Assembly: GCA_045638465.1 (NCBI GenBank)
Contig: JAZUBK010000043.1
Coordinates: 8,416-72,415 of the forward strand
Length of the DNA stretch: 64,000 nt
Direction of reading: 5' to 3'
From: Clostridia bacterium
GTDB taxonomy: Bacteria; Bacillota; Clostridia; Christensenellales; UBA1242
The position numbers and the translations under genes are program-made. Within the stretch, counting starts at the first letter, position 1; each line of letters starts with the position of its first letter. Shown here in pieces: positions 13,944 through 64,000 of the stretch. Below the pieces are notes generated by a model that saw only the letters and a program-made list of their open reading frames with translations, was not told where the DNA came from and ran no database searches.

Positions 13944-14255
13944 ATGCAACAAAAAGTAAAAGATTTCAACAGTTTAATGCCTTGCCACACCAAGCCTATG
14001 CCACCATCAGCAAGACTTATGGATATTACTAGTGAAATAGGAGAACTAGCAAAAGAAGTGCTTAAAGCATCAAAGTACGGCACAAAAGATTTTGCAGTAA
14101 CAGAAGATTTCAAAATGGAATTTGGTGATGTGCTTTATTCTTTACTTTCATTTGCTATAGAAACAGGTATTGATGCTGAAGAAGCTTTAGACAAAATTTT
14201 AGCAAAATACAAAGCTCGTATTGAGACAAAAGGCTCAATGGGAAGCGAAAACTAA
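13944..14255 (+). CDS. MazG-like nucleotide pyrophosphohydrolase domain protein
   Basis: 103 aa. The pattern EIGELAKEV....E.GDVLYSL...A...GID.EEAL..KL.K resembles the small MazG family. Confidence 0.6.
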   Translation: MQQKVKDFNSLMPCHTKPMPPSARLMDITSEIGELAKEVLKASKYGTKDFAVTEDFKMEFGDVLYSLLSFAIETGIDAEEALDKILAKYKARIETKGSMGSEN

Positions 14256-14726: not shown

Positions 14727-14728
14727 CG

Positions 14729-14761
14729 AAAAAAAGACCTGCACCATGCAAGTCTTTTTTT
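14729..14761. terminator. Bidirectional terminator between convergent genes
   Basis: Stem gacctgca / tgcaagtc (one mismatch), flanked by an A-run and a T-run. Confidence 0.6.
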
Positions 14762-14768
14762 ATTTTTA

Positions 14769-16649
14769 TTAATTTTCGCTAAGCATATTTTCTAGCTCTT
14801 GTCTAGTTTCTTCGCTCTTATATAATTCTTTATACATTTTGCATCTTCTAAATAGTTGATTGTGTGTGCCTTGGTCTAAGATTTTACCACTTTCTAGCAC
14901 TACAATATTATCCGCACCAACTATTGTTGATAGTCTGTGTGCAACTATGATAATTGTATGGTCTTTCTTTAGGCTATCGATTGCCTTTACGATAAGGCCT
15001 TGGCTTTCGTTATCAAGGGCAGATGTTGCCTCGTCAAATACAATGATTTTGCTATTTTTTAGTAGTATTCTTGCGATAGCAATTCTTTGTTTTTGACCAC
15101 CTGATAACATAACTCCGTTTTCGCCAACCAAACTATCAAGGCCTTTATCAAGTTTTTTGATAAAGTTATAGATTTGAGCTCTCTTTAGGGCAGAGATCAT
15201 TTGCTCTTCGGTAGCGTTAGGATTGATAAACAATAAGTTTTCTCTGATTGTACGGTTAAAGATATATGGGGCTTGAGTTACGATACCGATGTTATCTCTT
15301 ATCGCATCTTCTGTAAGCTCGTTGATATCGTGTCCGTCAATTAATAGTTGTCCGCTCTTTACATCATATAATTTATTTAGCAAGGCAAGTATTGTACTTT
15401 TACCACTGCCTGACTTTCCAACGACTGCTGTTGTTTTGTTTGGTTCAAAAGTAAGGTTTAGATTTTCAAGTACGTTTTCATCTTCTACATAACCAAATGT
15501 AACATCTTTGAATTCGATTCTTCCTTCTACTTTTTCGATTATCTTGTCACCAAATTTTTCTTTTGGGAAATCGTCCATAATCTCAAAAACTCTTTGCGCA
15601 GCAAGTTCTCCCTCGATTGAGTATTGTTTGATCATAGCAAAGTAGTTTGTAAGACCTTTTACATTTCCGTGGTACATATAGATTACAAGGAATCCTGCAA
15701 GGGTGATATATTCTGCTTTAATAAATAATATACCCATAACAAAGAAACCAACCTCAAAACACGCACCAACTATATTACGAATAAGTACCCATTTTCTTCT
15801 AGTAAATCTTGATAGTCTGTGGATATCAAGTGCGTGTTCAAACTTTTCGCCAGAGTCTTTGATTGTATTATTACGAATATTCAAGCTCTTTACATCACGA
15901 AGGCCTCTTACTTGCTCATTGTATGAGCCAGTAGCAATTTCTCTTTTTTCTCTAAATTTCTTTCTTTGCAAAAACCACATTCTTTCTTTTTTGCTATCAA
16001 ACGCCCAAAGAACAAAAACGTATACAACTAACGCTAGGAAAAACCAAACATTAAGAAAAGCAATATAAATAAGGAACGCAAAGTTTGAAATAACGTCCAA
16101 AATTACGCTCATAATATCCATCAAAACGTCAGAGCATTTACCAGCGTCTTCGTTCATTCTTTCGATATATACACCGCTATTTGTTTGATCACTCTTTGTC
16201 ATAGTAACAGATGTTATGCTACGAATAAGTGCTTGTTTGATATCAAATACAACTTTGCTATCCATTTTTACATAACAAACACCATGTATATGGTTGAATA
16301 TTTCTACCAATACTCTTATTCCGACAAAAAGTAGTGCAAACAACAAGGCTTTGTCAAAATCAAGAACTGATAGATTTGCCAGAGCCTGAGCACTAAAGAT
16401 TGGCCCAAAAAGTCCTACCACACCACTGATTACTAGTGATAAGATAGTTGCGATAAACAAACCTAAATATCTGCGGTAAAAAGGAATAAGTTTTTTAAGG
16501 CCTTTATAACCTTTTAGTTTGTTTACAGGCTTTTTAGCTTTTTTGTCTGTTATGATAGGAGTTTCAGCTTTAGGCTGCTCCACTTTTACTTTTGTTTTCT
16601 TCTTTGTAACCTTCTCTGTGATTACAATTTCTTTTGTATTTTTTGCCAT
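14769..16649 (-). CDS. ABC exporter, fused permease/ATPase (MsbA/type I exporter-like) with a Lys-rich N-terminal extension
   Basis: 626 aa. Walker A GKSGSGKST, signature LSGGQKQRIAIAR, Walker B IIVFDEATSALD. Six predicted N-terminal helices. Confidence 0.85.
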   Translation of the reverse strand: MAKNTKEIVITEKVTKKKTKVKVEQPKAETPIITDKKAKKPVNKLKGYKGLKKLIPFYRRYLGLFIATILSLVISGVVGLFGPIFSAQALANLSVLDFDKALLFALLFVGIRVLVEIFNHIHGVCYVKMDSKVVFDIKQALIRSITSVTMTKSDQTNSGVYIERMNEDAGKCSDVLMDIMSVILDVISNFAFLIYIAFLNVWFFLALVVYVFVLWAFDSKKERMWFLQRKKFREKREIATGSYNEQVRGLRDVKSLNIRNNTIKDSGEKFEHALDIHRLSRFTRRKWVLIRNIVGACFEVGFFVMGILFIKAEYITLAGFLVIYMYHGNVKGLTNYFAMIKQYSIEGELAAQRVFEIMDDFPKEKFGDKIIEKVEGRIEFKDVTFGYVEDENVLENLNLTFEPNKTTAVVGKSGSGKSTILALLNKLYDVKSGQLLIDGHDINELTEDAIRDNIGIVTQAPYIFNRTIRENLLFINPNATEEQMISALKRAQIYNFIKKLDKGLDSLVGENGVMLSGGQKQRIAIARILLKNSKIIVFDEATSALDNESQGLIVKAIDSLKKDHTIIIVAHRLSTIVGADNIVVLESGKILDQGTHNQLFRRCKMYKELYKSEETRQELENMLSEN

Positions 16650-16734
16650 AATGATTTACCTATTATATATATTTAAAATTTTAGTATACTAATCTTATAC
16701 CACCAAACTTGCACTGTCAATAGCAAAATCCAAA

Positions 16735-49230: not shown

Positions 49231-52200
49231 ATGAAAAAATTTCTAAAAGGATTGAGATACTTTTTGTGCTATGTGGCAATAACGCTATCCACAGCTGTAG
49301 GCGTGGTTGTTTATCAGTCAAATAGTGCAGGTAGTGTTAGCAACGGAAATTTAGCAGGTTCTACCGTAGGACAGGTAGAAAATAACTTAATGGAAGTTGT
49401 TACAAACTTAATGGACCTTGAAAGTTTTAATGTAAATAGCTCTGTATCATTAACTGATACCACAAAGCCTTCTTCAACACCTATTGATATTGACTTTAAT
49501 ATCGATATCAACCTAGGCACTGGGTTTTCTTCTATAGAGGCTGATGGTGTATTTGATATAGCACTAGACAACAAAACTTTTGATGTAGCAATTAGGTTTG
49601 TAGATAATACTTTCTATGTTTCTGCACTAGACCAAGATATTCAGTTCACAGCATCTGGACTTGTCGAGGGTATTGGCGGCGTACTAGCACTGCTTGATGT
49701 AGACCTTCCACTAGACAGTAGCCTTATGGAAAACTTTGACGTTACTGCACTTCTTGGATATATGGGTGAGTACAAAGAAGTAGAAACCGAAACAGGATAT
49801 AATATAAACCTTGAGTTTATGGGTTATGATATAGCAATGGTTTGCGACAACTTGTTTAACTTAAACTCAGTAGTAATAGAAAATATGGCTATTGAAGGGT
49901 TTAAAATTGACCTAAACTTAGGACTTGAAACTTATGAGCAAAAGGTTGAAATCACAAAACCTCAACATAGCTTTATAAATCTTGATACAGTAACAAGCCT
50001 TGTTAATATGACTCAAGATGTTTTAGAAAACAACTTTGTTATGGCAGATATCTCTGCAAGTTACGAAGGTATAAACCTAGACTTTAATGCTAAAGCAGAT
50101 TTTTCAGACAACTTTATTATGAGTCTTACAACTCCAGCTTTTGACGGAATTAACTTCTCTTTCAAAAATGGCAGTTTGTATGCAAACGTTGGCAACCTAA
50201 AAGTTAAAGGAAGAGCTGCCGATATATCTACAATAATTGATTTCGTAAACGGAGACTTGAGAGCAAATATCGAAAGCATCTCTCCAGAAATTGTAGAAAC
50301 TATCACCTCTAAGACAAATGAGATTACTTCATCTATCTCAAACGAACTAAAAAATATAGATGCAAATAAGCTTCTTGATTATATAGACTATCTAACAATA
50401 TCAGATAACCAAATCATTATTGATATACCAAGCACTGCCAAAGTTGTAATAGATATTGAAAGTGGTTATATTACTTCAATTACTGCAAACGCCTATGGCG
50501 TAGATCTTACAATAGATAATATATCTTTTGAAAAACAAGCTATCGAAATTAACACAAATGACTTTGTTGATTTTGACAAAGTATTCCCAACTTTCAAAAC
50601 TTTTGTAAACACACTATTTACAAAAGGTATCAGTGGTACAATGACATTTGGCCGTGGAAACAAAACAAACTCTCTAAACTACGGAATAAGATATACAAAC
50701 CACTTCGAAACAAGTTTTGATACAACTATATTAAACAAAACAGTTTCTGTAGTTTCAGACAACTCAAAAGTTTATTTGATGGTAGATGGCATAAAGGTAA
50801 ATGTAGACCTTGCCGAATACCAAACAATTATTGATTACATAAACGAAACCTTTAATCAAAACATTTCTTTGCCTAGCTTTGAGATGCCAGAGATTGACCC
50901 ATACACAATGGTTGTCGGGGCTATCTCTTCTATAGATTATCTAAAAGCTATTGATAGTGGCATCGAACTATCTATAGGCGGAATTGTTATCCAAATTATT
51001 TCAAACGAAAACTATATCCAAACGCTAAATGTAAAATACAACGATTATTCATTTGCTCTAAATATTACAGGTTACGGCGAAGTTGAATTGTTTGACATAG
51101 ACAAAGACGACTACCTAGTATTTAGCGATCTTACAAACTACGTAGACAAAGCAACAAGCTTTGCAAATAGCACAAGCTTTAATATGCACCTTGGCATTAT
51201 GGCAGACATAAATGGCACAGACATTACAGCGATGGCAGACGGAAGAGTTGGACTAAACGGAAATGTAGAAGCAACCGTTACTACTACAGTTAATGATTTT
51301 GGCCTAGATTTCTCTATGGCTTTGACTGATGATGCTTTGGGCCTAACATATGACGGACTAAACGTTTATGCAAAACAATCATCAATTGGTGCTCTTACAA
51401 ACATTATCAAAAACATTGTTCCAAATTATGTAAATATTGATAGTTTGCTACAACAAAATAATATAGACCTTGATAAAACACTAAGCTCAGACATTAAACT
51501 TCCTGCTATAGATACAAAACAACTTATCTTAGCAGTAAAACGACTAAATCTTAACAAAGATACTCTAACAGCAGAACTTGACTGCAGCGAATTCACTTCA
51601 GGCGAAAAATCAACTGCAATTGTCGTTGTAAGAATGGTAAATGGCGGATACGAACTAAGAATAGGTTTAGTATATAACGATATAGTTATTAATTTGTACC
51701 TAAAACTTACTTCTACAGAAGACTTTACAGCTTCTATTCCAGCAGATGCAATCGATGTGGAAGACTACTTAAATCTTGTAGAATATATGCACAATACAAT
51801 CGATAGCAGAAATCTAGCACTAGACGTAACTGCAACAATCGACCAAACAGAAATTGTAGCTAAAGTTCTTGCAGACTTTAGATCTACTCTAAAAGTTAAA
51901 GCAACAACAGAAAGTTTGGGTAGCAAACTAGATGTTGTTTATGCAAGTGATATAAACAAACTACTTGTTACATTTGGTGATATCAAAATCTCAGGCAAAT
52001 CTTCTGACCTTGCAGATATCCTAAACTTTGTAAAAGTAGACCTAAACAATGCGCTTTTAACTTATGGCGAAAAGGCTTTGTCAAAGGTTAACTTTGAAAG
52101 TCTAACTCAAAGCAAAGATACAACTATTACATTTGAGGATATAAAAGATATCCTACACTCTATCACATTTGGTGATGACACAATTAGTTTTGTAAAAGAT

Positions 52201-55200
52201 AACATTGTTGTTACTTTGACAATTACAAACAAATCAATCTCAAATATCAAGTTTGCTATAGATAATATCGTAGTAAATGTAGGTGTTTCAGACAATACCC
52301 AAGCAATTACATACACAACTGCAGGTTATAGTGCATTTGAAAACATCTTGGATAATCTAAAAGCAATTACAAATGTTGCAACCTCTCAAGCTTTTGGCGG
52401 AAAGGTAACTATAACTTACAACAAAGATAAAACTTACACAGGAAACCTAAAAGTTAACTACATTAATAATGTATTGAGCGTTCATGTAGATTCTAACGTC
52501 TACGACCAAGATATATCTATTGATATTATTGGCTCTATAGTTTATGTAAAACTAAACGAACTAAAACTTCAAGTTTCTTGGGCAGAAAGATATGCTCTTC
52601 AAGAATATCTAAATTCAAAATTTGATTTACAATTAGATATTGATGCTATATTCAATATGGCAAAAGGCGTTGCAAGTTCTACAAAAGACTTTAGCCTAGA
52701 CAATATCAATATCGACTTTATCTCAAACTTTGTAGCAAACAAAAACGGCCTTGACATTACAGTAAGTGATATTCCTGTATCTCTTGGCATCGCAAAATAC
52801 GGCGACACTGACAAAAACTATTTGTCTTATATCTCTGCAGGTTATGACAAATTTGACATTTCAATTAACGAAATGACATTTGGTCAAGACGCAATAGTAA
52901 ATAGCGTAAACGCAACAGAATATCACAAGTACACAGACTTTACAAAATATTTCGACGAGATAGAGAGATTGATCAACGCATCTAAAGATAGCGCAACAGA
53001 CCAATACACTCTAAAAGGCGGAATCAAACTATACAAACTAGACGCAAACGGCAATGCTCTTGTAACTGATGGAGTTGCAGATGAAATCACAATCTCTATT
53101 AATGATTTGAAATTTGACGCAACCAAGAACACCTTTATTGGCGGAATCGATGCTAAAGGCTCTGGCTCACTATACGAAAGTTACCTTTCTGGCTATGACC
53201 ACAGCTTTGATGCGGCATATGATTATAACTTCATCTATTTTGATTACAACGGCCTAAGAGCTAAGTTTAGTAAACAAAGTAACAGTGAGTTTATCACCAC
53301 TCTAAAGAAAATGCTTCCTACATATCTTGGCGACACTCCGCTTACAAGACAATTAGTTTCTATATTTGATATGATTAGGTTTGACACTATGGGTAATATG
53401 TTATTCAACCCAGTAAAACTTGACGTAACATACAATATGATAGAACAATTTGCTCCTATGCTATCTACACTAAAATTAGAAGAAAATGGCAGCCTAACTA
53501 TTGGACTTGACATCTCTACACTAGACCCAACATTTAAAGAAGAATTGCTTTTGAATGTATCTATTGACGAAAGCGGTAGACTTGCTCTAGTTATAAACAA
53601 ATTCAAACTAACAAAAGATCTTGCTATTGACTTTACAATCTATGTAGACACTGCAAGTACCTTTACTGTAAATCCAGAGGGCGACTATCTTGATATGACT
53701 TCTATTGGCAAACTTCTTAGCGATTTTGATAACACAGCCCAAAAGACAACTACCGACAACGAAGTTTATAAACTAAACCTAAGTGGTAGCTTCCACCTAA
53801 AGATTGCAGTAAGCTTTATCAAGATCAACGAAGATATCCCATTTAAAGCACAACTTATCATCGATAGAAACAGCAATCAATTAATCGAAGCAAAAATCGA
53901 AGTTGATATGCCATCTATTATTTTAGTTACCGATGGTTGCTACTCAACTCTATATCTAACCAATAGACTAGAGGGCGAAAATATTTTGTATATTGATAGA
54001 CAAGGCAAAGACCCTCTAAAATCAAAATACAAAGTAAGTGAGCTTGGCGCTAACCTACTAAATGTTATTTCTGATATTACTGCAATATCTTCATCAACCC
54101 TAGAAACATTTATGACTATGGACATCAAATATATCGATGGCCCATCTAAGGCAGAAAATGTATTGAAAGATTATTCTTGCGTAACAGGAATAAATACAAG
54201 AGATTATACTATTGGCCTAGACCTAAGACAAATTACTCGTATGGATATGATGCTTGGCTACTCTGCATCTAACCCTACAGGAGTTGTTATCCATTCACAA
54301 AACAACGCTTTCTCATCAATTGATATCAACAATATAACCTTAGAGGCTATATCAAATGTATTTATTTATGTAAATGGTACAATCGACCTTACAAAGATAA
54401 ATCAAACAAGTGATATTATAGGCGAAATCGAAAACCTTGACGCTACACTTTATGGCTCATGGGGTGATGGTAGCTTAGTTGCTGACTTTATCGAAAATGG
54501 TGGTAGCAACGTTCCAAACAAAATGGGAACAACTGGTAGAAGCTTTACTCTTCCTGTTCCTGTAAAAGAAGTTGTAAACGGCAACACCTTAGAAGTTTAT
54601 AAATTCCTTGGCTGGAGCCTAAATAGTGACGGTAGCGGAGAGCTTTATAACGGCAAATATATGTTCGAAACAAGTTCTCTTACATTCTACGCTGTATGGG
54701 AGCTAGATACTGTCTACACAAGCAGAACAATTAATTTTGTTACAGAGTATCTAATGGCAAATGGTATCGATAGTAAAGTAGAAAACAATATATCATCTAT
54801 TACAAACTATAATGGATACGACATCTCAAACAGCTTACCAACTATAAGCGACACAGTTACTATCTACTACGAAGACGAAGGCGTATCTATCACATATAGA
54901 TATGACGGTTTATTTAAAACAAGAACAGTAAATAGTGACGGAACTATTGTCTATAGCGACAAGTTTGATCAAACAGTTATGCCAAACGAAGATTTGACAT
55001 TGTATGCAAGTTTTGTGGAAATCGACAGAGTTTATAAGAGAAAACTTACTATCTTAGATGAAAGCAAGACTTTGTACGAAGGTTACTTCGTAGAAGGCGA
55101 TGTTATCGACATCTTGAGTTTGGTTGCATACAAAGATACAACTAGATGGTATGATGATTATGACGCTACTGCTACAACAAGATACACCAACGAAATCTTA

Positions 55201-55893
55201 ACAGTTGACCTTCCAACCACAATGCCAAGAGGAAATGACCTATCACTATATGTTAGAAATAAGTATACTATTACTTATACTTCAAACTTCGGTGACAAAA
55301 AGACATATACTCAAACAGATTATCAAGGAGAACCTATTTCTCTTCCTACTCAAACAAGTTATGAAAATATCGTATACAAAGAAGAAAAAGATTCTGACGG
55401 AAATAAGATTCCAAACTACCTATCAACATTTGTATATGAAGGTTATACATTGAGTACTGATTCTTCAGTTGCAGTACCAAGCGTTATTCCAAGCAAAAAC
55501 GCAACATATGCAGCAAAATGGTCAAATATAACTACAAGTTATGTAAAAGTTACCTTCTCTTCTCCTTGGGTAAAACCAAGTGCTTGGTGGTTTGGTTGTT
55601 CTCAAGAAGTGGCGCCTAGAGGAACTCTTGTAAGATATGTTCTAAACGGCTCAACTCTAAACAATACAACCCTAAGCAAAAAGACCTCTATTATTGGTCT
55701 TACTGCAAACGAAGACGAAAACATTTCTGACTACTGTGTATATAAATATGCTATAAAATATAAATTCTCTATTACCGTATGGAATAAAGAAGGCGCTAAA
55801 AACCACAACACAGGAAGTGCAACAGCAAAGAGTTGGACAATTACTGGCGATACAACATTCTATGGAGAATGGGAGTGCACAGGCATTGTTTAA
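49231..55893 (+). CDS. Giant (2,220 aa) N-terminally anchored exoprotein with ~195-aa periodic modules and C-terminal Flg_new-type repeats
   Basis: Uninterrupted ORF with RBS AGGAGA. N-terminal helix YFLCYVAITLSTAVGVVVY. Seven recurring beta-strand/helix anchor motifs. C-terminal YKFLGWSLNSDGSGELYNGKYMF..LTFYAVWE. Confidence 0.8.
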   Translation: MKKFLKGLRYFLCYVAITLSTAVGVVVYQSNSAGSVSNGNLAGSTVGQVENNLMEVVTNLMDLESFNVNSSVSLTDTTKPSSTPIDIDFNIDINLGTGFSSIEADGVFDIALDNKTFDVAIRFVDNTFYVSALDQDIQFTASGLVEGIGGVLALLDVDLPLDSSLMENFDVTALLGYMGEYKEVETETGYNINLEFMGYDIAMVCDNLFNLNSVVIENMAIEGFKIDLNLGLETYEQKVEITKPQHSFINLDTVTSLVNMTQDVLENNFVMADISASYEGINLDFNAKADFSDNFIMSLTTPAFDGINFSFKNGSLYANVGNLKVKGRAADISTIIDFVNGDLRANIESISPEIVETITSKTNEITSSISNELKNIDANKLLDYIDYLTISDNQIIIDIPSTAKVVIDIESGYITSITANAYGVDLTIDNISFEKQAIEINTNDFVDFDKVFPTFKTFVNTLFTKGISGTMTFGRGNKTNSLNYGIRYTNHFETSFDTTILNKTVSVVSDNSKVYLMVDGIKVNVDLAEYQTIIDYINETFNQNISLPSFEMPEIDPYTMVVGAISSIDYLKAIDSGIELSIGGIVIQIISNENYIQTLNVKYNDYSFALNITGYGEVELFDIDKDDYLVFSDLTNYVDKATSFANSTSFNMHLGIMADINGTDITAMADGRVGLNGNVEATVTTTVNDFGLDFSMALTDDALGLTYDGLNVYAKQSSIGALTNIIKNIVPNYVNIDSLLQQNNIDLDKTLSSDIKLPAIDTKQLILAVKRLNLNKDTLTAELDCSEFTSGEKSTAIVVVRMVNGGYELRIGLVYNDIVINLYLKLTSTEDFTASIPADAIDVEDYLNLVEYMHNTIDSRNLALDVTATIDQTEIVAKVLADFRSTLKVKATTESLGSKLDVVYASDINKLLVTFGDIKISGKSSDLADILNFVKVDLNNALLTYGEKALSKVNFESLTQSKDTTITFEDIKDILHSITFGDDTISFVKDNIVVTLTITNKSISNIKFAIDNIVVNVGVSDNTQAITYTTAGYSAFENILDNLKAITNVATSQAFGGKVTITYNKDKTYTGNLKVNYINNVLSVHVDSNVYDQDISIDIIGSIVYVKLNELKLQVSWAERYALQEYLNSKFDLQLDIDAIFNMAKGVASSTKDFSLDNINIDFISNFVANKNGLDITVSDIPVSLGIAKYGDTDKNYLSYISAGYDKFDISINEMTFGQDAIVNSVNATEYHKYTDFTKYFDEIERLINASKDSATDQYTLKGGIKLYKLDANGNALVTDGVADEITISINDLKFDATKNTFIGGIDAKGSGSLYESYLSGYDHSFDAAYDYNFIYFDYNGLRAKFSKQSNSEFITTLKKMLPTYLGDTPLTRQLVSIFDMIRFDTMGNMLFNPVKLDVTYNMIEQFAPMLSTLKLEENGSLTIGLDISTLDPTFKEELLLNVSIDESGRLALVINKFKLTKDLAIDFTIYVDTASTFTVNPEGDYLDMTSIGKLLSDFDNTAQKTTTDNEVYKLNLSGSFHLKIAVSFIKINEDIPFKAQLIIDRNSNQLIEAKIEVDMPSIILVTDGCYSTLYLTNRLEGENILYIDRQGKDPLKSKYKVSELGANLLNVISDITAISSSTLETFMTMDIKYIDGPSKAENVLKDYSCVTGINTRDYTIGLDLRQITRMDMMLGYSASNPTGVVIHSQNNAFSSIDINNITLEAISNVFIYVNGTIDLTKINQTSDIIGEIENLDATLYGSWGDGSLVADFIENGGSNVPNKMGTTGRSFTLPVPVKEVVNGNTLEVYKFLGWSLNSDGSGELYNGKYMFETSSLTFYAVWELDTVYTSRTINFVTEYLMANGIDSKVENNISSITNYNGYDISNSLPTISDTVTIYYEDEGVSITYRYDGLFKTRTVNSDGTIVYSDKFDQTVMPNEDLTLYASFVEIDRVYKRKLTILDESKTLYEGYFVEGDVIDILSLVAYKDTTRWYDDYDATATTRYTNEILTVDLPTTMPRGNDLSLYVRNKYTITYTSNFGDKKTYTQTDYQGEPISLPTQTSYENIVYKEEKDSDGNKIPNYLSTFVYEGYTLSTDSSVAVPSVIPSKNATYAAKWSNITTSYVKVTFSSPWVKPSAWWFGCSQEVAPRGTLVRYVLNGSTLNNTTLSKKTSIIGLTANEDENISDYCVYKYAIKYKFSITVWNKEGAKNHNTGSATAKSWTITGDTTFYGEWECTGIV

Positions 55894-55899
55894 TAAAAC

Positions 55900-55931
55900 A
55901 AAAAAAGACTAGAATTTTTCTAGTCTTTTTT
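55900..55931 (+). terminator. Intrinsic terminator of the giant-protein operon
   Basis: Stem agactag / ctagtct followed by a T-run. Confidence 0.7.
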
Positions 55932-55990: not shown

Positions 55991-56024
55991 AAAAAACGCC
56001 CTAAGATAACTTAGGCGCTTTTTT
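55991..56024 (-). terminator. Intrinsic terminator of the HTH-RSH bicistron
   Basis: Minus strand GCGCCTAAG-ttatc-CTTAGGGCG (one bulge) followed by a T-run. Confidence 0.65.
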
Positions 56025-56031: not shown

Positions 56032-57513
56032 TTATTTCTCTGCATATTTTTTCTCAAAATATTTGATTAATACTTTCTTTGCATTTTCGCTATTTACATA
56101 AGCAAACCATCTAATCTCTGCTATTGGTTTTAAAAGTCCAGTTTTGCTGTCAGTTTCGTTATAAACAACGACTTGGTCGCCCTCTACAAGCCTTGTATAA
56201 GGCGGTTTTGGGTTTGGCGACTTATTTATCAAAGCATATTTACACGAAAGCCCTAGGTCATTGTGAACCTTAAAAGCAAAGTCCAAAACCGTACTATTTT
56301 CTGGAAGGCGTATATGTTCTCCGCTACGGGTTTTTACTGTAATATATCTTTTTGCAATATCACCAATAATGTTGTCATCAATAAGGTCAATCTCTGAACT
56401 ATCAGTTGTTCCGTTACGCATCAAAATATATTGTTCCATAGTCATAGCTGTTATTCTATATTTGATCAAACTACGATCTTGAACAATAAGGTAATGAAGG
56501 CCGTATCTATCGTTCTTTTCGTATCCTATAACCTTTAGGTCGTCATTTAGCACTCCTGCGTCAAACATTTCATATACTAGGTGAAATATATTGTCTTTGG
56601 TATTTCCATTAAAAATAAAGTATAGTTTAACAGTAGGCATACGGTTAAAAGAGTTACGCCTTATGTGTTTGATAGAGTTTATCTCAAGGTGCTTTTTCAT
56701 ACGTTCGCAAAGACTATATAGAGTATCCCTTTCAAAAATGATTTTGCTATAAGAATATTCTTTTTTTGCAAAGTAATTGTTGGCCTTATAGTTTATATTA
56801 TCACAAAGGTCATTAATATGGCTTACACACGAATCAAAATATCTATTGTATCTACCACAAAGGTCGCCATACAACTCTCTATTTAGTATTTTGTAGCACT
56901 CATCTTTTAGGTTGTCATAAAAGTATTTTGATCTCAAAAGATATGCTAGAGGAATTATCCACTTTTGAGTTTCTTTAACCTTTTCTACCTGCTTATATTC
57001 GCTAAAAGTTTCTATCGTGCGAAGGTTGTGTAGTCTATCGGCAAACTTGATATAAAAGGCAAGTTTGTTTTGTTTACCAAAAGATATTAACTTGTTAAAA
57101 GTTTGGTCATCAAGGCTTTCTTTTTTGAAATTTTCATCATAAAAGATATCTTTGATTGAAGTTTCGTTTTCTTCGATTGCGGTTACTGCATCTACAATAT
57201 TTGCAACGTTTTCATCAAAAGCTTCTCTTATCTCAGAAATTGTACAACCACAATCTTCTACTACGTCGTGAAGAAGTGCTGCAGCTATCATTTCGCTGTC
57301 AAAGTCTAGTTCGGCCAAAATCTTTGCTACGGCTACGGGGTGGCTTATGTATGGTGTGCCGTCTTTACGCATTTGGCCATTATGTAATTTTTCGGCAAGG
57401 TTGAAGGCGTTGACAACATTTAGTATACCTGTCGATTCGTTCCTTTTCAAAATCGCAAGTATATCTTCAAAATCTTGCTTATAATCTATCATCTTCATCT
57501 CCATATGAGCCAT
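56032..57513 (-). CDS. RelA/SpoT homolog: intact HD (p)ppGpp-hydrolase domain, degenerate synthetase-like region, TGS domain; no C-terminal ZFD/ACT region
   Basis: 493 aa. HNGQMRKDGTPYISHPVAVA, AALLHDVVED (H82 D83), FADRLHNLRT. TGS-like ITVKTRSGEHIRLPENSTVLDFAF. Start ambiguous (57513, 57504 or 57492). Confidence 0.75.
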   Translation of the reverse strand: MAHMEMKMIDYKQDFEDILAILKRNESTGILNVVNAFNLAEKLHNGQMRKDGTPYISHPVAVAKILAELDFDSEMIAAALLHDVVEDCGCTISEIREAFDENVANIVDAVTAIEENETSIKDIFYDENFKKESLDDQTFNKLISFGKQNKLAFYIKFADRLHNLRTIETFSEYKQVEKVKETQKWIIPLAYLLRSKYFYDNLKDECYKILNRELYGDLCGRYNRYFDSCVSHINDLCDNINYKANNYFAKKEYSYSKIIFERDTLYSLCERMKKHLEINSIKHIRRNSFNRMPTVKLYFIFNGNTKDNIFHLVYEMFDAGVLNDDLKVIGYEKNDRYGLHYLIVQDRSLIKYRITAMTMEQYILMRNGTTDSSEIDLIDDNIIGDIAKRYITVKTRSGEHIRLPENSTVLDFAFKVHNDLGLSCKYALINKSPNPKPPYTRLVEGDQVVVYNETDSKTGLLKPIAEIRWFAYVNSENAKKVLIKYFEKKYAEK

Positions 57514-58477
57514 CCCTTATCATACGGAAGAAACTATCATCTTCGCTATTTGATACCTTTGCAAATCGGAACATATTAGCGTCCAAAGTTTCTTTAACAA
57601 TGTTTTCTAAGCTATCGCTTATGATTCTTTGTTTTTGGAAATCATTAAGGCCGCTTGGGTTATCCATGTCCTCAAGGTATAGATTTTTGAACAAAGTAAT
57701 TAATTGGTTACTTTCGGTTTGAACGTTTACTTCGCTTATATCAAGAGACAATCTTTGGTAAAGTTCTCCGTCTGGTATTTTGAATAACTTTTCGCTCATT
57801 ATAATATATTGAACGCAAGGCATCTTTTCTCTACCACGAGCAACAGAGTTAACTGTTCCTAGTCCACCAATATATTTGTTATTGCTAGGTGGGTTGTTTA
57901 AAATAATCAAACAATGGTCTTCTTCTAGATTGTTTTTCATTAAAATAAATATTTGAGCGGCAGAAGATTCCAAAGTTCCAGTATACTTTAGCTCTTGCTC
58001 CATATAATAATCAACTTTTTGCTTTTCGCTCTTTAGCATAGATAGGTATTTAAAAGTTTCTTCCATTTCTTTTCTGCTATCAAAAAACTTAGCAAAAACT
58101 TTCAATCCATCTTTTTCTTTACCTTCGCCAAGAATAGAGATAATACCATATCTTAGGATATTGGTTGATCTGTGCACTCTACCTTTGTAAACGTTGGTGT
58201 CATAATAATATAGTGCGTACTCTCCCACAAATCTAGTGTCGGCTTTTGTTAGTTCTCTCTTTTCGGTAGGGGTGATAGGCCCTGTCAAAAACTTATCTAT
58301 ATCAATGCCATACGCCCTTTTTAATTTCAAAAGAAAACTAGCAGATGGGTCGCTGTTTTTGTTTAGATAATTGTTTACTGACGCAGGAGAAACCCCCGTA
58401 TCTTCAGCAATCTTCTTTTGGCTATATTTATCTGCCAAAACTTTTAGATTCGATGTAAAGTAATTTAGTTCGCTCAT
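57479..58477 (-). CDS. XRE-family HTH protein with ~260-aa unknown C-terminal domain
   Basis: 332 aa. RBS AAGGAGA. KKIAEDTGVSPASVNNYLNKNSDPSASFLLKLKRAYG is an HTH. Overlaps the downstream RSH gene. Confidence 0.7.
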   Translation of the reverse strand: MSELNYFTSNLKVLADKYSQKKIAEDTGVSPASVNNYLNKNSDPSASFLLKLKRAYGIDIDKFLTGPITPTEKRELTKADTRFVGEYALYYYDTNVYKGRVHRSTNILRYGIISILGEGKEKDGLKVFAKFFDSRKEMEETFKYLSMLKSEKQKVDYYMEQELKYTGTLESSAAQIFILMKNNLEEDHCLIILNNPPSNNKYIGGLGTVNSVARGREKMPCVQYIIMSEKLFKIPDGELYQRLSLDISEVNVQTESNQLITLFKNLYLEDMDNPSGLNDFQKQRIISDSLENIVKETLDANMFRFAKVSNSEDDSFFRMIRDGSYGDEDDRL

Positions 58478-58501
58478 ATATTTATCTCCTTTTATGATGT
58501 T

Positions 58502-58531
58502 ATTTTACACGACCAAAACCCACTTTGGCAA
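58502..58531 (-). promoter_or_regulatory. Putative promoter of the HTH-RSH bicistron
   Basis: Minus strand TTGCCA (58531-58526), 18-nt spacer, TAAAAT (58507-58502). The spacer contains the inverted repeat CCAAA-N6-TTTGG (58513-58528). Confidence 0.4.
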
Positions 58532-58651
58532 TTAAAAAAACCTAAAAATGATTAAAAATACTAAATTAATTAAAAATTATAAATTTCTTTTTTATTTATA
58601 TAAAGCGACAACAAAATAAAAGATTTAGATGAGCTTGTAAATGTTGAAATT

Positions 58652-58688
58652 AAAAAATCCAAATTGCAATTTGCAATCTGGATTTTTT
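58652..58688 (-). terminator. Intrinsic terminator downstream of the 295-aa membrane protein gene
   Basis: Stem atcca+attgca / tgcaat+tggat, flanked by an A-run and a T-run. Confidence 0.65.
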
Positions 58689-58701
58689 AGTATAATACAA
58701 A

Positions 58702-59589
58702 TTATTTTTTTGTAGACTTTTTGGTTTTCTTTGCAGGTGTCTTTATTGTTGGATTGTCAATCTCAACAACTTTCATTTTGTTATCACAAAGACCATACTT
58801 AACCTCTGTTATAATATTGTCAATTTCTGCTAACATTTCAACAACGACATCTCCGCCCGGAACTGTGATTTCTACAACAGAACGGTCTTTGCCAAAAACT
58901 ATGCTACCTATTGGTTGAATCTCTTGATATGGCTTGATATAAAACTCCAATGTCACAGCAAAAGCTTTTTGGCTAATTACTTCTTCTACAACTTCTCTTT
59001 TGATAAAAATAATTGAAACGCCTAATGCAATAGCAGCCAAAATATATCCATATTTGAAAGCCGCTCCGGGACCACCCGCTATAACTGGCCCAATTAATGC
59101 TCCTAAGATCATAACCGCAGCAAATGCCCAAAGACCAAAAGCCCAAATAGAAATATTCAATTTGCCTTGAGTTTTTTTATCTGTTTTTTTCTTAACTGTA
59201 TAACCAACCCCTTGGACATCTTCAATGTTTCTTGAAATTTTATTTATTCTACTTCCGTCATCAGAAAGCAAAATAAGCCTTTTATCGGTTATTATAATCT
59301 CTGTTTCTTTTTTCTTTTGGTCGCCAGAATCATTATCGTCATAAAGCTCTGTAAAAGCCCATTTCTTTTTGATTGTTTCGCCTGAAGCTACTTTATTATA
59401 GTAAGATAATGACATATAATCATCTTCAACTATTTCACCATTTTTGTTTTTAGCCTCAGATTTATCATCAGAAGTTGTAAGTTTTACTTTGCGCTTTTCA
59501 GCTAAAGAATCTTCTTTATCATCATCTAAATCTACATCTACTTCTTCAAGTTCTTCATCCTCTTCTATCTTATCATATTTTTTTGCCAT
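58702..59589 (-). CDS. Membrane protein: acidic N-terminus, PH/GRAM-like segment, 2 TM, C-terminal domain, Lys-rich end
   Basis: 295 aa. RBS AAGGAGA. IIITDKRLILLSDDGS, TMs ISIWAFGLWAFAAVMILGALIG and YILAAIALGVSIIFI. Confidence 0.55.
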   Translation of the reverse strand: MAKKYDKIEEDEELEEVDVDLDDDKEDSLAEKRKVKLTTSDDKSEAKNKNGEIVEDDYMSLSYYNKVASGETIKKKWAFTELYDDNDSGDQKKKETEIIITDKRLILLSDDGSRINKISRNIEDVQGVGYTVKKKTDKKTQGKLNISIWAFGLWAFAAVMILGALIGPVIAGGPGAAFKYGYILAAIALGVSIIFIKREVVEEVISQKAFAVTLEFYIKPYQEIQPIGSIVFGKDRSVVEITVPGGDVVVEMLAEIDNIITEVKYGLCDNKMKVVEIDNPTIKTPAKKTKKSTKK

Positions 59590-59735: not shown

Positions 59736-61169
59736 TTATTTGTTTAGTTCCTCTAGTTTTTTGATAATGATTGGTTTGATAAAATCAATCTTTGCAGTGC
59801 CTTTTGTGGCTCTCATTGTTTGACCAATAAAGAAGTTCATTACTTTTTCTGGCTCGTCTTTGTAATCAGGTACTGCTTTTGCATTTTGAGTAAATACCTC
59901 TTCGATAGTTTTTGTTAGGCTGTCTGCGTCAAATGTAACTATCATACCAGATTCTTTTGCAGTTTTACGTGCGTCTTTATCAGAAAAAGCCACCATTTCA
60001 AATAGTTCTTTGCCATTGACACGGGTGATAGTTTTGTCTTCTACCATAGTCATAATATCAACTAGGTTGCTAGAAGATATAACGTCGTTTAGGTCTTCTG
60101 ATGGTTTTTCTTTTAGTTTTCTAAGCACTTCGGTCATAACCCAGTTTGAAACGACTTTTGGGTTATCAAAACCTTTCAAGCACTCTTCAAAATATTGTGA
60201 AATGTAATATTCTGAAGTAAGGATTTTGCTATCGTACTCAGGAAGTCCCAAAGTTTCTACATAATATACTTGTCTTTCTGGTGCAAGTCTAGGAATTTCT
60301 TTGCGGATATTTTCTACGATATCTTGACCGATTGCCACAGACAAAATGTCAGGGTCTGGGAAATATCTATAGTCTTGGGCTTCTTCTTTGCTACGCATAG
60401 TAAGGCTCTTGTTGTGGTTGTCGTCCCATTTACGAGTTTGTTGTTTGATAACTCCGCCTTCGTTTAGAACGTCCATTTGTCTTTGAGCTTCGTATGTGAT
60501 TGCTCTATGAACCATTTTAAATGAGTTTAGGTTTTTCATCTCAGTACGAGTTCCAAATTTTTCGCTACCTTTTGGTTTGATAGAAAGGTTAACGTCACAT
60601 CTCATACCGCCTTGCTCCATACGACAATCAGCGATTTGACCAAAGACAAGGTTTGAACGAAGTTTTGTCATAAACTCTACTGCTTCTTCTGCAGAAGAGA
60701 TGTCTGGCTCTGTAACTATCTCAATAAGTGGTACGCCGCCACGGTTGTAGTCGATAAGTGTTCCGACTGCGCTATTTACGTGGATAAGCTTACCAGCGTC
60801 TTCTTCTAGGTGGATACGGTTAAGTCTGATAAACTTACCGCTATCTAGTCTTATTCCGCCGCCTAGACAAATTGGTTTTTGAAGTTGGCTGATTTGGTAT
60901 GCTTTGCAAAGGTCAGGATAGAAGTAGTTTTTTCTTTCAAAAACTGCAACTGGTGAAATTTCGCAACCCATACAAAGACCAGCTTTTACAGTAAGTTCTA
61001 CTGCTCTTTTGTTAATAACAGGAAGTGTTCCTGGAAGACCAATACAAACAGGGCAAACATTGGTGTTAGGCTCTGAACCAAAAGCATTTTTGCAACTACA
61101 AAAAACTTTTGTGTTAGTTTTTAGTTCGGCGTGAATCTCAAGGCCGATAACTACATCATAATCCTTCAT
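59736..61169 (-). CDS. gatB: Asp/Glu-tRNA amidotransferase subunit B
   Basis: 477 aa. VIGLEIHAEL, NTNVCPVCIGLPGTLP, RMEQGGMRCDVNLS. Confidence 0.9.
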   Translation of the reverse strand: MKDYDVVIGLEIHAELKTNTKVFCSCKNAFGSEPNTNVCPVCIGLPGTLPVINKRAVELTVKAGLCMGCEISPVAVFERKNYFYPDLCKAYQISQLQKPICLGGGIRLDSGKFIRLNRIHLEEDAGKLIHVNSAVGTLIDYNRGGVPLIEIVTEPDISSAEEAVEFMTKLRSNLVFGQIADCRMEQGGMRCDVNLSIKPKGSEKFGTRTEMKNLNSFKMVHRAITYEAQRQMDVLNEGGVIKQQTRKWDDNHNKSLTMRSKEEAQDYRYFPDPDILSVAIGQDIVENIRKEIPRLAPERQVYYVETLGLPEYDSKILTSEYYISQYFEECLKGFDNPKVVSNWVMTEVLRKLKEKPSEDLNDVISSSNLVDIMTMVEDKTITRVNGKELFEMVAFSDKDARKTAKESGMIVTFDADSLTKTIEEVFTQNAKAVPDYKDEPEKVMNFFIGQTMRATKGTAKIDFIKPIIIKKLEELNK

Positions 61170-62596
61170 TATTTGCTCTCCTTGTAATTTTTGTGAATAT
61201 AACTTGCTATGTCAAATACTGTTTGTTCATCAAACTTTTTGCCGATAACTTGCATACCAAGTGGAAGACCATTTTTGCCTGTGCTATAAGGAATATTAAT
61301 AGCAGGTACACCAACTAAGTTTGAGATGATAGTAAACATATCTTCTGCATACATAGCTGTTGGGTCTTTTTTAGAATTTACTGCAAATGCTTCGCCAAAA
61401 GTTGTTGGCATAATGATAGCGTCTACCATTTCAAAAGCTTTTGCAAATTCTCTAGTTAAAGCTTGTTGAATTCTTTTTGCTTTTACATAATAAGCATCGT
61501 AGTACCCAGAAGATAATACGAAGTTTCCTAGCATAATTCTTCTTTTTACTTCTTTGCCAAAACCTTCTGTACGGCTCATTTCATACACATCACCGATAAC
61601 CTTTGCGTCTGGGCTACGTCTTGTGTATTTTACGCCGTCAAATCTACCCAAGTTTGAAGTTGCTTCTGCTGGGGCGATTATATAATAGATAGGTAGTGAA
61701 ATTTCATAACCTTTGATGTCAATAGTTTTTACTATAGCACCTTGGCTCTCTATCCATCTAACTAGTCTGTCAAAATTTGCTTTGTATTCGCAAGATTCTA
61801 GTAGTTTGTCAATTTCGGCTACAACACCAATAGTTTTGCCATCTAGAGCAGGTTTAATATCTTTTAGATAACTACCTACTGGCTCATGGCTACAAGTAGT
61901 ATCGTTGATATCTTCGCCTGACATTATTTCCATAAGTAGTGCTGCATCTTCTACGGTATGAGTAATAGGTCCGATTTGGTCAAGAGAACTTGCAAACGCA
62001 ATAAGACCATATCTTGATACCCTACCGTAACTACCTTTGATACCAACAACGCCATTTAGTGATGCTGGTTGTCTGATAGAACCACCTGTATCGCTACCTA
62101 GAGCCGCTGCGCACATATCTAGTGCCACTGCCGCTGCGCTACCGCCAGAACTACCACCAGCAACTTTGCCATCGTCAAAAGCGTTTAGGCCTGGGCCATA
62201 TGCTGAGTTTTCGCAGCTACTACCCATAGCAAACTCGTCCATATTTGCTCTACCGATAATTACTGCATCTTCGTCAAGAAGTCTTTGTACTGCAGTTGCG
62301 GTATATTGTGCTTTGTGATTTTCTAGAAACTTTGATGCACAAGAGGCAATCTTGCCCTCGTACATAATGTTGTCTTTGAGCAAAATTGGTACACCAGCAA
62401 GGCGACCTACTTTTTCGCCTTTAGCAATCTTTTCGTCGATTTCTTTTGCCCTATCTAGTGCGTCTTCAAATTTTTCTAATATAGCCATTTTGTGGCTGTA
62501 TTTGTCCATATTTGCAAAGTAATATTTTACAAGTTCAACGCATGATTGTTTACCTGCTTTTATATCCTTTGCGATATCTATTAAACTTTTTGCCAT
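61169..62596 (-). CDS. gatA: Asp/Glu-tRNA amidotransferase subunit A
   Basis: ORF 61169..62626. Preferred start is ATG 62596 (TAATG overlap with gatC). Amidase signature GGSSGGSAAAVA, GSDTGGSIRQPA. Confidence 0.9.
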   Translation of the reverse strand: MAKSLIDIAKDIKAGKQSCVELVKYYFANMDKYSHKMAILEKFEDALDRAKEIDEKIAKGEKVGRLAGVPILLKDNIMYEGKIASCASKFLENHKAQYTATAVQRLLDEDAVIIGRANMDEFAMGSSCENSAYGPGLNAFDDGKVAGGSSGGSAAAVALDMCAAALGSDTGGSIRQPASLNGVVGIKGSYGRVSRYGLIAFASSLDQIGPITHTVEDAALLMEIMSGEDINDTTCSHEPVGSYLKDIKPALDGKTIGVVAEIDKLLESCEYKANFDRLVRWIESQGAIVKTIDIKGYEISLPIYYIIAPAEATSNLGRFDGVKYTRRSPDAKVIGDVYEMSRTEGFGKEVKRRIMLGNFVLSSGYYDAYYVKAKRIQQALTREFAKAFEMVDAIIMPTTFGEAFAVNSKKDPTAMYAEDMFTIISNLVGVPAINIPYSTGKNGLPLGMQVIGKKFDEQTVFDIASYIHKNYKESK

Positions 62597-62886
62597 TATT
62601 CTACTACCCTTGGTACGTTGAAGCACCCCTTTCTTTGTTTTGGAGCGTTGATCAAAGCCTTTTCTTGAGACATAGAAGGTCTGATCTCGTCTTCTCTTAG
62701 TTCTGTGATAGGCACGATATTATCAAAGATATATTCGCCATCAACTTCAAAACTTTCGATTTGGTTAATCATATCTAGAGTATTGTTAAACTCTGGCAAG
62801 AAGTTTTCTAATTCTTCGTCGCTAAATTTTAGTGCAGACAAATCTGCCAAGTGCTTTATATCGTCAATTGTTAATTTTTTACTCAT
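62596..62886 (-). CDS. gatC: Asp/Glu-tRNA amidotransferase subunit C
   Basis: ORF 62596..62970. Preferred start is ATG 62886 (MSKKLTIDDIKHLADLSALKFSDEE..., RBS AAAGGA). 96 aa. Confidence 0.85.
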   Translation of the reverse strand: MSKKLTIDDIKHLADLSALKFSDEELENFLPEFNNTLDMINQIESFEVDGEYIFDNIVPITELREDEIRPSMSQEKALINAPKQRKGCFNVPRVVE

Positions 62887-62905
62887 GATAAAATCCTTTC
62901 TTTTA

Positions 62906-64000
62906 TTATGGTCTGATTCTGTCTGGACCACGGAAGATAAACATTGCTTCTCTAAGGTTAGGAAGGTCAAGAAGTAACATTGTTAATCTGTCGATACCCA
63001 TACCAAAACCACCGTGTGGAGGACAACCATATTTAAAGAAGTCAATATATGATTCTCTCATAGTATCTGGGTCGATACCTTTTTCTCTAATTTGAGCTTC
63101 TAGCACGTCAGCTCTATGCTCTCTTTGAGCACCACTTGTGATTTCTACGTCTTTGTAGTATAGGTCGTATGTCTTTGTGTACATTGGGTCATCTTCTTTC
63201 TTCATAGAATAGAAAGGTCTAACGCCTGTTGGATATTCTTTTACAAAGAAGAATTGGTGACCGTTTTTCTTCATCATATATTCGCAAAGTAGTCTTTCGG
63301 CTTCTCTGTCTAGGTCATCGCCTTCTTCTAGTGGATAATCGCACTCTTCGTCTAAGATTTTGTAAGCTTCTTTCATAGTAATACGTGGGAAAGGAAGTGT
63401 AGGAACTACAACATCAACGCCTAGTTCTTCTTTTACTCTGTCGCCTAGCTTTTCGGCTACTAGTTTGATACCAGCATGGATAAGTTCTTCTTCTACTTTC
63501 ATAACGTCTTCAACGTCAGTAACTCCTGCAAATTCTAGGTCAAAGCCAGTAAACTCTGTAGCGTGTTGTTTTGTGTGTGAGTTTTCTGCTCTGTATACTG
63601 GAGTTCCGATAAATACTTTTTCAAAGCCACCAGCGATAGCCATTTGTTTGTAAAATTGTGGGCTTTGGATAAGGTATGCTTTACGCTCAAAGTATTTTAC
63701 TTCAAATACACCTGCACCACTTTCACTTTCGTTACCGCTGATTGTTGGGCAGTGAACTTCGATAAAGCCATTGTCGTAGCAGTAATCTCTCATACCTTTC
63801 ATCAAAGCTGTTTGAACTTCGAATACAAGACGTTTTTTGCTATCTCTTAGGTCGATCCAACGATAGTCTAGTCTTTGGTCGATTGAGCTTTCACTGTCAA
63901 TTGGTGAAATTTCTGCTTTGCTTTGTACAACAACTTCTGTAGGCAATATTTCTTTTCCGCCTAGTTTTACCCATTGGTTTTCTACAAGCTCACCACAAAC
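62906..64000 (-). CDS. aspS: Aspartyl-tRNA synthetase, archaeal/type-2 (probably non-discriminating), N-terminus off the right edge
   Basis: The frame stays open upstream of the listed Met to position 64000 (…VENQWVKLGGKEILPTEVV…). Class II motifs QSPQFYKQ, FRAENS, GMGIDRLTMLLL..FRGPDRIRP. Directly upstream of gatCAB. Confidence 0.8.
   Translation of the reverse strand, partial: VCGELVENQWVKLGGKEILPTEVVVQSKAEISPIDSESSIDQRLDYRWIDLRDSKKRLVFEVQTALMKGMRDYCYDNGFIEVHCPTISGNESESGAGVFEVKYFERKAYLIQSPQFYKQMAIAGGFEKVFIGTPVYRAENSHTKQHATEFTGFDLEFAGVTDVEDVMKVEEELIHAGIKLVAEKLGDRVKEELGVDVVVPTLPFPRITMKEAYKILDEECDYPLEEGDDLDREAERLLCEYMMKKNGHQFFFVKEYPTGVRPFYSMKKEDDPMYTKTYDLYYKDVEITSGAQREHRADVLEAQIREKGIDPDTMRESYIDFFKYGCPPHGGFGMGIDRLTMLLLDLPNLREAMFIFRGPDRIRP

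Follow-up and report, generated by a model that had tools for sequence, protein, structure and literature searches.

The window analysed here is a stretch of 64,000 nucleotides from a Clostridia bacterium (contig JAZUBK010000043.1, positions 8,416 to 72,415), and positions are counted from its first letter. Its minus strand carries an operon of two overlapping open reading frames (ORFs). The first gene, at 57479..58477, encodes a 332-residue protein of the XRE family with a helix-turn-helix (HTH) and an undescribed C-terminal domain. The second, whose ORF runs over 56032..57513 (493 aa), encodes a truncated long RelA/SpoT homolog (RSH) that has kept the features of a hydrolase and lost those of a synthetase. 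Sequence comparison favours, at roughly even confidence, the reading that the operon joins a SpoT-like, hydrolase-only long-RSH paralog to a dedicated XRE-type regulator or partner with which it is co-translated. So far as its motifs can tell, the lineage appears to have split the two activities of Rel over two paralogs, in the manner of RelA and SpoT.

The hydrolase part of the RSH protein looks active. Its HD (p)ppGpp-hydrolase domain (56944..57408; like all features of the operon, on the minus strand) matches Pfam HD_4 (PF13328) over residues 36-190 at 2e-29. The hydrolase signature is intact, with RK..Y..HP, LLHDVVED and ADRLHN all in place, and both the metal-binding H...HD...D and the ED pair are present. 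The domain aligns with the hydrolase domains of Rel from M. smegmatis (1e-33) and B. subtilis (4e-32), and the protein matches A. baumannii SpoT (PDB 7qpr) at 1.5e-28. Weaker matches are found to the small alarmone hydrolases (SAHs) Mesh1 and Lmo0812, at about 5e-11 to 1e-12, and the (p)ppApp hydrolase PDB 7smg is matched at 3.6e-9.

The synthetase part, by contrast with the hydrolase part, is degenerate. The whole RSH is collinear with residues 27-433 of B. subtilis Rel, and the segment between the HD and TGS domains (56365..56916) corresponds to Rel residues ~200-390; this segment is therefore a remnant of the synthetase domain. The protein has no match to the Pfam RelA_SpoT synthetase (PF04607), and the motifs RxKxxxSxxxK, DxxAxRI, YQSLH and EVQIRT have all been replaced. 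Against the NCBIfam model for RelA/SpoT (TIGR00691) it scores 199 bits, where the cut-off is 499. The TGS domain follows at 56170..56343 (Pfam PF02824, residues 391-448, 3e-9). About 45 residues further on the protein stops, within a helix that corresponds to the first of the alpha-helical (AH) domain. Full-length Rel can be aligned with it as far as the W..V...AK..I..F helix and then runs for ~230 more residues, so that the window protein is missing the AH, RIS/ZFD and ACT/RRM domains. Of the parts that make up a long RSH, the protein thus has HD and TGS, and lacks the synthetase and the AH/RIS/ACT C-terminus. Neither is it an SAH, which is a single HD domain of ~180-200 aa, since it is 486-493 aa long with a pseudo-synthetase and TGS. 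The original prediction, made from the letters of the window, had already described a truncated long RSH of the hydrolase type, and this description stands.

The same state is found throughout the family. In 120 clusters of truncated RSH proteins the HD motifs are kept in 103-118 and HDxxED in 118, and the synthetase motifs in none (0/120). Among 51 complete RSH partners from distant loci no synthetase motif survives either (0/51); HDxxED is found in 41 of these by a strict regular expression, plus two cases that the expression missed.

Evidence that the two genes belong together can be provided by their arrangement in other genomes. Loci carry labels such as L003 or L081, the higher numbers including distant and metagenome loci. 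A scan with the HTH-protein alignment, using one genome per species, matched 97 stretches, and the 80 best were retained. Their sources are all uncultured gut Clostridia, under labels such as Christensenella sp., Ca. Onthoplasma, Christensenellales and Clostridia bacterium. In 81 of the 82 close loci an RSH gene lies directly downstream of the HTH gene on the same strand, and in the remaining one the contig ends 116 nt past the HTH gene. The stop of the first gene and the start of the second overlap, by 14 nt in the window's clade and most often by 8 nt among relatives; this near-universal overlap suggests that the two proteins are produced together in fixed proportion. There are 238 close homologs of the HTH protein, conserved in length, and the RSH family is likewise large and constant in length.

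To gather the wider family, the C-terminal domain on its own served as the profile in an exhaustive search. At 50% identity, 309 clusters share this domain, most of them proteins of 345-420 aa with an N-terminal HTH. Among the distant members and 67 metagenome loci, whose GC content ranges from 29% to 57%, an RSH gene lies downstream in 62 of 63 testable loci, and the adjacency holds down to ~25-30% identity. The sole homolog without an RSH gene next to it is P0465 (454 aa; L085:149-3585), which is followed by a gene for a 653-aa protein with no Pfam match. Judged by gene order over all these loci, the pair is a conserved unit of Christensenellales-like gut Clostridia, and in a diverged form it occurs across many other Firmicutes. 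The conserved synteny, now seen in more than 140 loci, agrees with the earlier suggestion that this is an undescribed module. No description was found in the literature of an operon of an XRE gene and a hydrolase-only RSH gene, of the C-terminal domain, or of a synthetase-only Rel in Clostridia; an unnamed listing is possible in the classification tables that supplement the RSH census of Jimmy et al. 2020, which has 13 long-RSH subfamilies.

An example of the pair behaving as a unit is found in Ca. Onthoplasma faecipullorum, where one contig (DWVI01000002.1) carries two pairs (L064:10001-12365 and L076:5161-7570). Their HTH proteins are 54% identical and their RSH proteins 53%, with intact HD motifs in both RSH copies. 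Judged by these paralogs, the module duplicates and diverges as a cognate unit. Other variations on the gene order were seen. L109 has a second RSH copy in tandem (12996-14132), and an extra short TGS-like ORF stands straight after the RSH gene in L125, L126, L138, L140-L142 and L152.

Both genes are under strong purifying selection (dN/dS ~0.03). In comparison with L003, the HTH gene has a dN/dS of 0.028, the RSH gene one of 0.032 and the flanking gatB one of 0.065. The most conserved part of the RSH gene in the same comparison is TGS, with a dN of 0.004 and an omega of 0.005.

The second half of the proposed split is seen in two related genomes, which carry a full-length Rel on the same contig as the pair, 5-7 kb away. 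In L081 this Rel (14577-16664) is 695 aa long, lies right after recJ and has RelA_SpoT, TGS, AH/RIS and ACT domains. In L059 (13825-15630) the contig ends within it, and RelA_SpoT, TGS and AH/RIS are retained. Both proteins have kept all synthetase motifs and lost the hydrolase site: LLHDVVED has become VLFQFSKV or LYLPFINE, and ADRLHN has become ATILYD or AFVVAT. A census of the L081 Rel with its closest relatives (P0241-P0360, 120 clusters) found the HD motifs in 0/120 and the SYNTH motifs in 118-120/120. The losses are thus the reverse of those in the truncated RSH. The synthetase-only Rel sits in a housekeeping context of recJ, rel and a radical SAM gene, followed in L157 and L159 by rpsO-pnp, and it is therefore the ancestral Rel, which lost hydrolysis. 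Because the hydrolase site of full-length Rel is destroyed in these related genomes, the truncated RSH is most likely the main alarmone hydrolase of the lineage. The label "bifunctional (p)ppGpp synthetase/hydrolase", which public annotation uses, is wrong for both proteins.

The partner of the RSH begins with a DNA-binding domain of a well-known kind. Residues 17-66 (58280..58429) match Pfam HTH_3 (PF01381, 1.4e-8) and HTH_19 (PF12844, 1.2e-7), which places the 332-aa protein with the XRE/Cro-C1 regulators. In Foldseek the domain finds the DNA-binding domains of P22 c2, SinR and C.AhdI with probability 1.0.

The remainder of the protein resembles nothing described. Past residue 70 there is no match in Pfam, NCBIfam, PHROG or the PDB sequences, including a search with a profile against the PDB. 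The C-terminal domain covers residues ~78-320 (57518..58246, ~250 aa). Across 40 sequences with 43-84% identity to the window protein, 46 of its residues are invariant, and the invariant motifs include YxGGLGTxNSxxRGRExxPC, PDGEIY and FRFAK...EDD. A first AlphaFold2 model of the full-length protein was poor (pLDDT 67), and its Foldseek matches were useless for assigning a fold. A model of the domain alone, built with 149 diverse sequences, reached a pLDDT of 89.4 and a pTM of 0.84. It predicts eight antiparallel strands with an insert of two helices, followed by a helical bundle. The Foldseek search of this model gave no significant match, the best E-values being 0.013 in the PDB and 0.002 in BFVD. 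There is a loose likeness to calycin-type barrels, namely lipocalins, fatty-acid-binding proteins, NanoLuc and the cyclic-dinucleotide receptor Cap15 (TM-score 0.52, E 0.04). The domain was previously called uncharacterised, and it has no known fold or family in these searches either; going by the model, it is plausibly an undescribed module that binds a small molecule or a partner protein.

One candidate identity for the domain was the "missing" C-terminal region of the RSH, separated from it by gene fission. This was rejected: hhalign against full-length Rel gave a probability of 0.3%, and Foldseek found no match to Rel or RelA structures.

The signals around the two genes are those of a self-contained transcription unit. 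The 332-aa ORF and the RSH ORF do overlap by the 14 to 35 nt first given for them, depending on the RSH start: the overlap is 35 nt with the first ATG of the RSH ORF and 14 nt with the ATG at 57492. The latter start is the more likely one, giving a gene at 56032..57492 and a protein of 486 aa, because it is preceded by a GGAG with a 6-nt spacer (57499..57502, an internal Shine-Dalgarno sequence within the 3' end of the HTH gene), because gene callers give 486 aa on contigs of the same species, and because the only RSH starts available among relatives are at -14 or -8. The HTH gene has its own Shine-Dalgarno sequence, AGGAG, at 58486..58490, 8 nt ahead of the ATG, and its GGAG is kept in relatives.

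Upstream of it lies a predicted promoter of the sigma-70 type (58502..58531; TTGCCA, 18 nt, TAAAAT), which agrees with the consensus at 10 of 12 positions. By itself such a match is at chance level in this AT-rich window, where 23 sites occur and 19.4 are expected. Its standing comes from conservation. The -35 (TTGC[CAT]A), the -10 (TA[AC]AAT) and the GGAG are aligned and conserved in L003-L007, and in almost every one of 79 loci the HTH gene is preceded by a promoter resembling TTGACA-17-TATAAT. The idea that the operon has a promoter of its own is thereby strengthened.

Intrinsic terminators bound the operon on both sides, as had been proposed. The one at 58652..58689 belongs to the upstream gene for a 295-aa protein and consists of an 18-bp stem-loop and a U-run (dG -20.8 kcal/mol, z -7.2 against shuffled sequences); it shields the operon from upstream transcription. 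The operon's own terminator lies at 55991..56024, where a scan matched 56000-56015 and the extended stem (dG -15.6, z -4.7 against shuffles) is followed by U7. Both genes are real and co-transcribed from their own predicted promoter, as an autonomous bicistron between the two terminators. About 70 nt from the RSH terminator, after the end of a giant gene on the opposite strand, there is a perfect 14-bp AT-rich hairpin with flanking A- and T-runs (55901-55931), which is read as a bidirectional terminator.

A candidate site for a regulator lies ~20 nt upstream of the -35, at 58554..58567, with the sequence AATTTAGTATTTTT. The same box is present in L004-L007, and L003 has a version with one mismatch, AATTTAAT. 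Its core, TTTAGT[AT]T, occurs in 26 of 77 orthologous upstream regions and in 139 of 1404 AT-matched control windows (odds ratio 4.6, p 4e-8), mostly 60-110 nt before the start codon and on the coding strand. A function as operator or activator site is suggested by this enrichment, and is not proven by it. Two other candidates were discarded. TTATCA-N6-TGATAA palindromes upstream of some Onthoplasma-like loci number 2-3 in 77, too few to claim. The CCAAA-N6-TTTGG inverted repeat that had been pointed out in the promoter spacer is indeed in the sequence; it is not conserved, being found in 1 of the 77 orthologous upstream regions. Since it is so rare and is absent even from the 97%-identical L003, it probably arose by chance, and it was rejected as an operator.

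Taken as a SpoT-like hydrolase with a dedicated regulator, the operon might work as follows. The truncated RSH would be the main (p)ppGpp 3'-pyrophosphohydrolase, clearing the alarmone that the synthetase-only Rel produces. The HTH protein would bind the promoter region of the operon and regulate its own expression. Its barrel-plus-helix domain may sense a small, possibly phosphorylated, ligand, may dock onto the RSH, for instance at TGS, or may do both. Such sensing or docking would link the supply or the activity of the hydrolase to the state of the cell, and translational coupling would keep the two proteins in a fixed ratio.

Several observations weigh against this reading. A tblastn search with the Rel synthetase domain finds no full-length Rel in the 64-kb window, nor is there one in the 7 kb past its right end, where contigs of the same species carry asnS/aspS, a P-type ATPase, queH and an MFS transporter. 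The reciprocal split on one contig is seen in only two genomes, whose HTH proteins are ~40-43% identical to that of the window. The census of full-length Rel covers the 120 closest relatives of the L081 protein and not the window's clade, and the role of main hydrolase is judged among the long RSHs of these genomes. For the candidate operator box the case is purely one of statistical enrichment. Finally, several distant pairs persist although their RSH has lost the catalytic residues of the HD domain.

These distant pairs include one from a cultured organism, Enterococcus sp. 669A (L164:8001-10389, JAFREM010000014.1), which encodes WP_207673236.1 and a 451-aa RSH-like partner. In the partner, KD stands for HD, RK for ED and ASR for ADR, and the synthetase residues have been lost too; TGS is kept. 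Beside this pair lies a divergent gene cluster encoding a Ser/Thr kinase, a vWA protein, PP2C, DUF6273, GrpE and an Hsp70-like protein. In L139 and L143-L149, which are contigs from human-gut metagenomes (RSH at ~11028-12398), the key HD residues are missing; in the L143 group HDQQQD and FAKNLD stand at the motif positions, and TGS is the sole Pfam match. In the RSH of L107 (11064-12524), HC replaces HD. Since the pair and TGS persist with a dead RSH, the partnership does more than join a regulator to an enzyme.

Such cases lend some weight to the alarmone-responsive transcription switch of the original prediction. They suit a model in which the pair is a two-protein sensor switch, a real though minority possibility that overlaps with the hydrolase reading and does not exclude it. 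Here the RSH-like protein would be a receptor or timer, whose HD pocket binds the alarmone and whose TGS binds uncharged tRNA or the partner; it would control DNA binding by the HTH protein over a wider regulon, and hydrolysis would serve as the reset. Besides the pairs whose RSH lost both catalytic sites and kept fold and TGS, the model is helped by the stop/start overlap found nearly everywhere, by TGS being the most conserved part of the RSH, by a C-terminal domain unusually conserved for an accessory regulator, with its 46 invariant residues, and by the co-divergence of paralogous pairs. It does not account for the HD motifs being strictly kept in the window's clade and most of the family (118/120, and 41/51 plus two), and the loss of hydrolysis by Rel in relatives creates a direct need for an enzyme. 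It is unlikely that the hydrolase instead acts on another substrate, such as (p)ppApp, pGpp or pyrophosphorylated tRNA ends, and that the operon is a detoxification module. RSH-type HD domains do include (p)ppApp hydrolases, and one of these is the 7smg match; the TGS domains of long RSHs bind tRNA CCA ends. The HD domain is far nearer to Rel and SpoT (1e-33 to 1e-28), however, than to the (p)ppApp hydrolase (3.6e-9) or Mesh1 (5e-11), and no (p)ppApp synthetase or toxSAS adjoins the pair in more than 140 loci.

The original prediction had also considered a toxin-antitoxin or defence-like pair. On that view the HTH protein would serve as antitoxin or repressor, and the RSH would act as an effector or counter a nucleotide second messenger. 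An overlapping bicistron that begins with an XRE gene and seems autoregulated has this look; two copies can occur in one genome, toxSAS toxins are known to have SAH-type hydrolases as antitoxins (PMC7229694), and the barrel is loosely like Cap15. The proposal nevertheless fares badly and is now very unlikely. There is no toxin-like activity to be found in the pair: synthetase motifs, and with them an active synthetase partner, are absent in all members, and there is no other toxin domain. PADLOC gives no significant match beyond a weak generic HTH, and the PHROG matches are generic HTH and HD domains only. The pair has the GC content of its host (34.3%, against 34.6% for the window), and its housekeeping flanks are conserved in near relatives. 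A single lineage carries it in about 97 species-level genomes, with none of the patchy distribution of mobile elements and no integrase seen beside the inspected loci, and purifying selection constrains it as strongly as it does gatB. As for an ordinary bifunctional housekeeping Rel that happens to lie beside an unrelated regulator, this is refuted, with practically no probability left to it. Some relatives do bear the bifunctional annotation. The RSH nonetheless lacks a synthetase match in Pfam and all four SYNTH motifs, reaches 199 of the 499 bits of TIGR00691, ends after TGS and coexists in related genomes with a separate full-length Rel, and its adjacency to the HTH gene is conserved to ~25-30% identity. 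The refuting case named beforehand, that the RSH is the organism's ordinary housekeeping Rel, does not apply.

Comparison with known systems places the hydrolase-only reading among familiar relatives. The closest analogue is the pair SpoT[Hs] and RelA[hS] of the Moraxellaceae, which show complete reciprocal loss, with the pseudo-domains retained as folds (PMC3153485, PMC9974481; A. baumannii SpoT is PDB 7qpr). The likeness lies in a hydrolase-only copy with a pseudo-synthetase in the window and a synthetase-only copy with a dead hydrolase in related genomes. The window RSH differs from SpoT[Hs] in having no AH, RIS/ZFD or ACT/RRM domains, which in SpoT wrap the catalytic core and control hydrolysis, and in sharing its operon with a dedicated XRE-type protein, as SpoT does not. 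It would work in a similar way, but judged by its Clostridia lineage and the missing C-terminal region it is not a member of the SpoT clade of beta- and gammaproteobacteria. A complete partition of synthesis and hydrolysis is recorded only for Moraxellaceae, and Clostridia are listed with Rel[HS] and small synthetases (PMC3153485). The host belongs to the Clostridia and not to the Gammaproteobacteria; therefore the split would be an independent event.

Another relative is RshC[HS], a second long RSH of six Bacillus strains, which is cut within the helical domain so that TGS is kept and CC/ACT is gone, and in which the synthetase is conserved (PMC3153485). Going by this description, the window RSH resembles RshC in being a second long RSH of a Firmicute truncated at the same point. 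It differs in that the synthetase is dead in all members of the family; for RshC no partner gene has been reported. With the SAHs, among them Mesh1, PbcSpo, RelH and ATfaRel, it would share stand-alone hydrolysis by an RSH-type HD domain, and the antitoxin ATfaRel is likewise an SAH-type hydrolase in a bicistronic module (PMC7229694). SAHs are single-domain proteins of ~180-200 aa, whereas the window protein has 486 aa with a pseudo-synthetase and TGS, an HD domain nearer to Rel (1e-33) and no toxSAS partner.

The HTH protein, too, has functional parallels. XRE-cupin regulators (PuuR) and repressors of the CI/ImmR type likewise join a Cro/C1 HTH at the N-terminus to a beta-rich effector domain, and their operons are autoregulated; the C-terminal domain described here belongs neither with the cupins nor with the S24 peptidases. 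Proteins that regulate long RSHs include Rsd, ACP, YtfK, DarB and EIIA-Ntr. None of these binds DNA, has this C-terminal domain or is translationally coupled to an RSH. The general principle, that separate protein regulators tune the balance of hydrolase and synthetase in long RSHs, often through TGS, is described (PMC6055147).

The surroundings of the pair indicate how it is inherited. The flanking gatB and the gene of a giant surface protein are conserved in the near relatives L003-L007, and not further out; this conservation indicates vertical inheritance. Integrases and other mobile-element genes were looked for beside the pair in the loci whose neighbours were inspected, and none was seen. 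Directly upstream lies a housekeeping operon (59736-64000, minus strand) with a class II tRNA synthetase like asnS/aspS, then gatC-gatA-gatB. In L004-L006 the gatC-gatA-gatB operon abuts the HTH promoter. In the window the two are separated by the gene for the 295-aa hypothetical protein (58702-59589, minus strand; 261 aa according to gene callers), whose N-terminus is acidic and which includes a hydrophobic segment. It has no tblastn match in loci L001-L082, including L003, and in L004-L006 gatB and the HTH gene lie too close together to leave room for such a gene. Because of this it looks like a recent insertion specific to the species.

On the other side, convergent with the RSH gene, the plus strand encodes the giant secreted or surface protein (49231-55893, 2220 aa), which has one weak match to the Listeria-Bacteroides repeat. 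On contigs of the same species it is called at 2748-2810 aa. It evolves fast, with 63% identity in L003, as against 97% for the HTH protein.

A broader proposal takes the pair beyond its role in gut Clostridia. The accepted view of Firmicutes is that the alarmone affects transcription only by indirect routes. It is a speculative and rather improbable extension of the sequence data that the pair is a widespread two-protein alarmone device of the Firmicutes. The truncated RSH, a hydrolase or, in some lineages, a dead receptor, would dock onto the new domain of the XRE factor or share a ligand with it, and so make a dedicated (p)ppGpp-responsive transcription factor; in Christensenellales-like bacteria this device would have been recruited as the SpoT half of an independent split of Rel.

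The textbook picture of the Firmicutes is one bifunctional Rel with small synthetases. If the split holds, this lineage would have repeated the division into RelA and SpoT independently, with a hydrolase that shed the regulatory C-terminus of SpoT and gained an obligate DNA-binding gene partner. The truncated RSH would then be no accessory curiosity but, most likely, the SpoT half of a RelA/SpoT-like pair. It would offer a natural system for the control of an RSH hydrolase without the AH/RIS/ACT region. The C-terminal domain of its partner defines a new protein domain family, of at least 309 clusters at 50% identity, that is tightly tied to alarmone metabolism. The pairs, one of them in a cultured Enterococcus, are thus candidates for a transcription factor that responds directly to the alarmone in Gram-positive bacteria.

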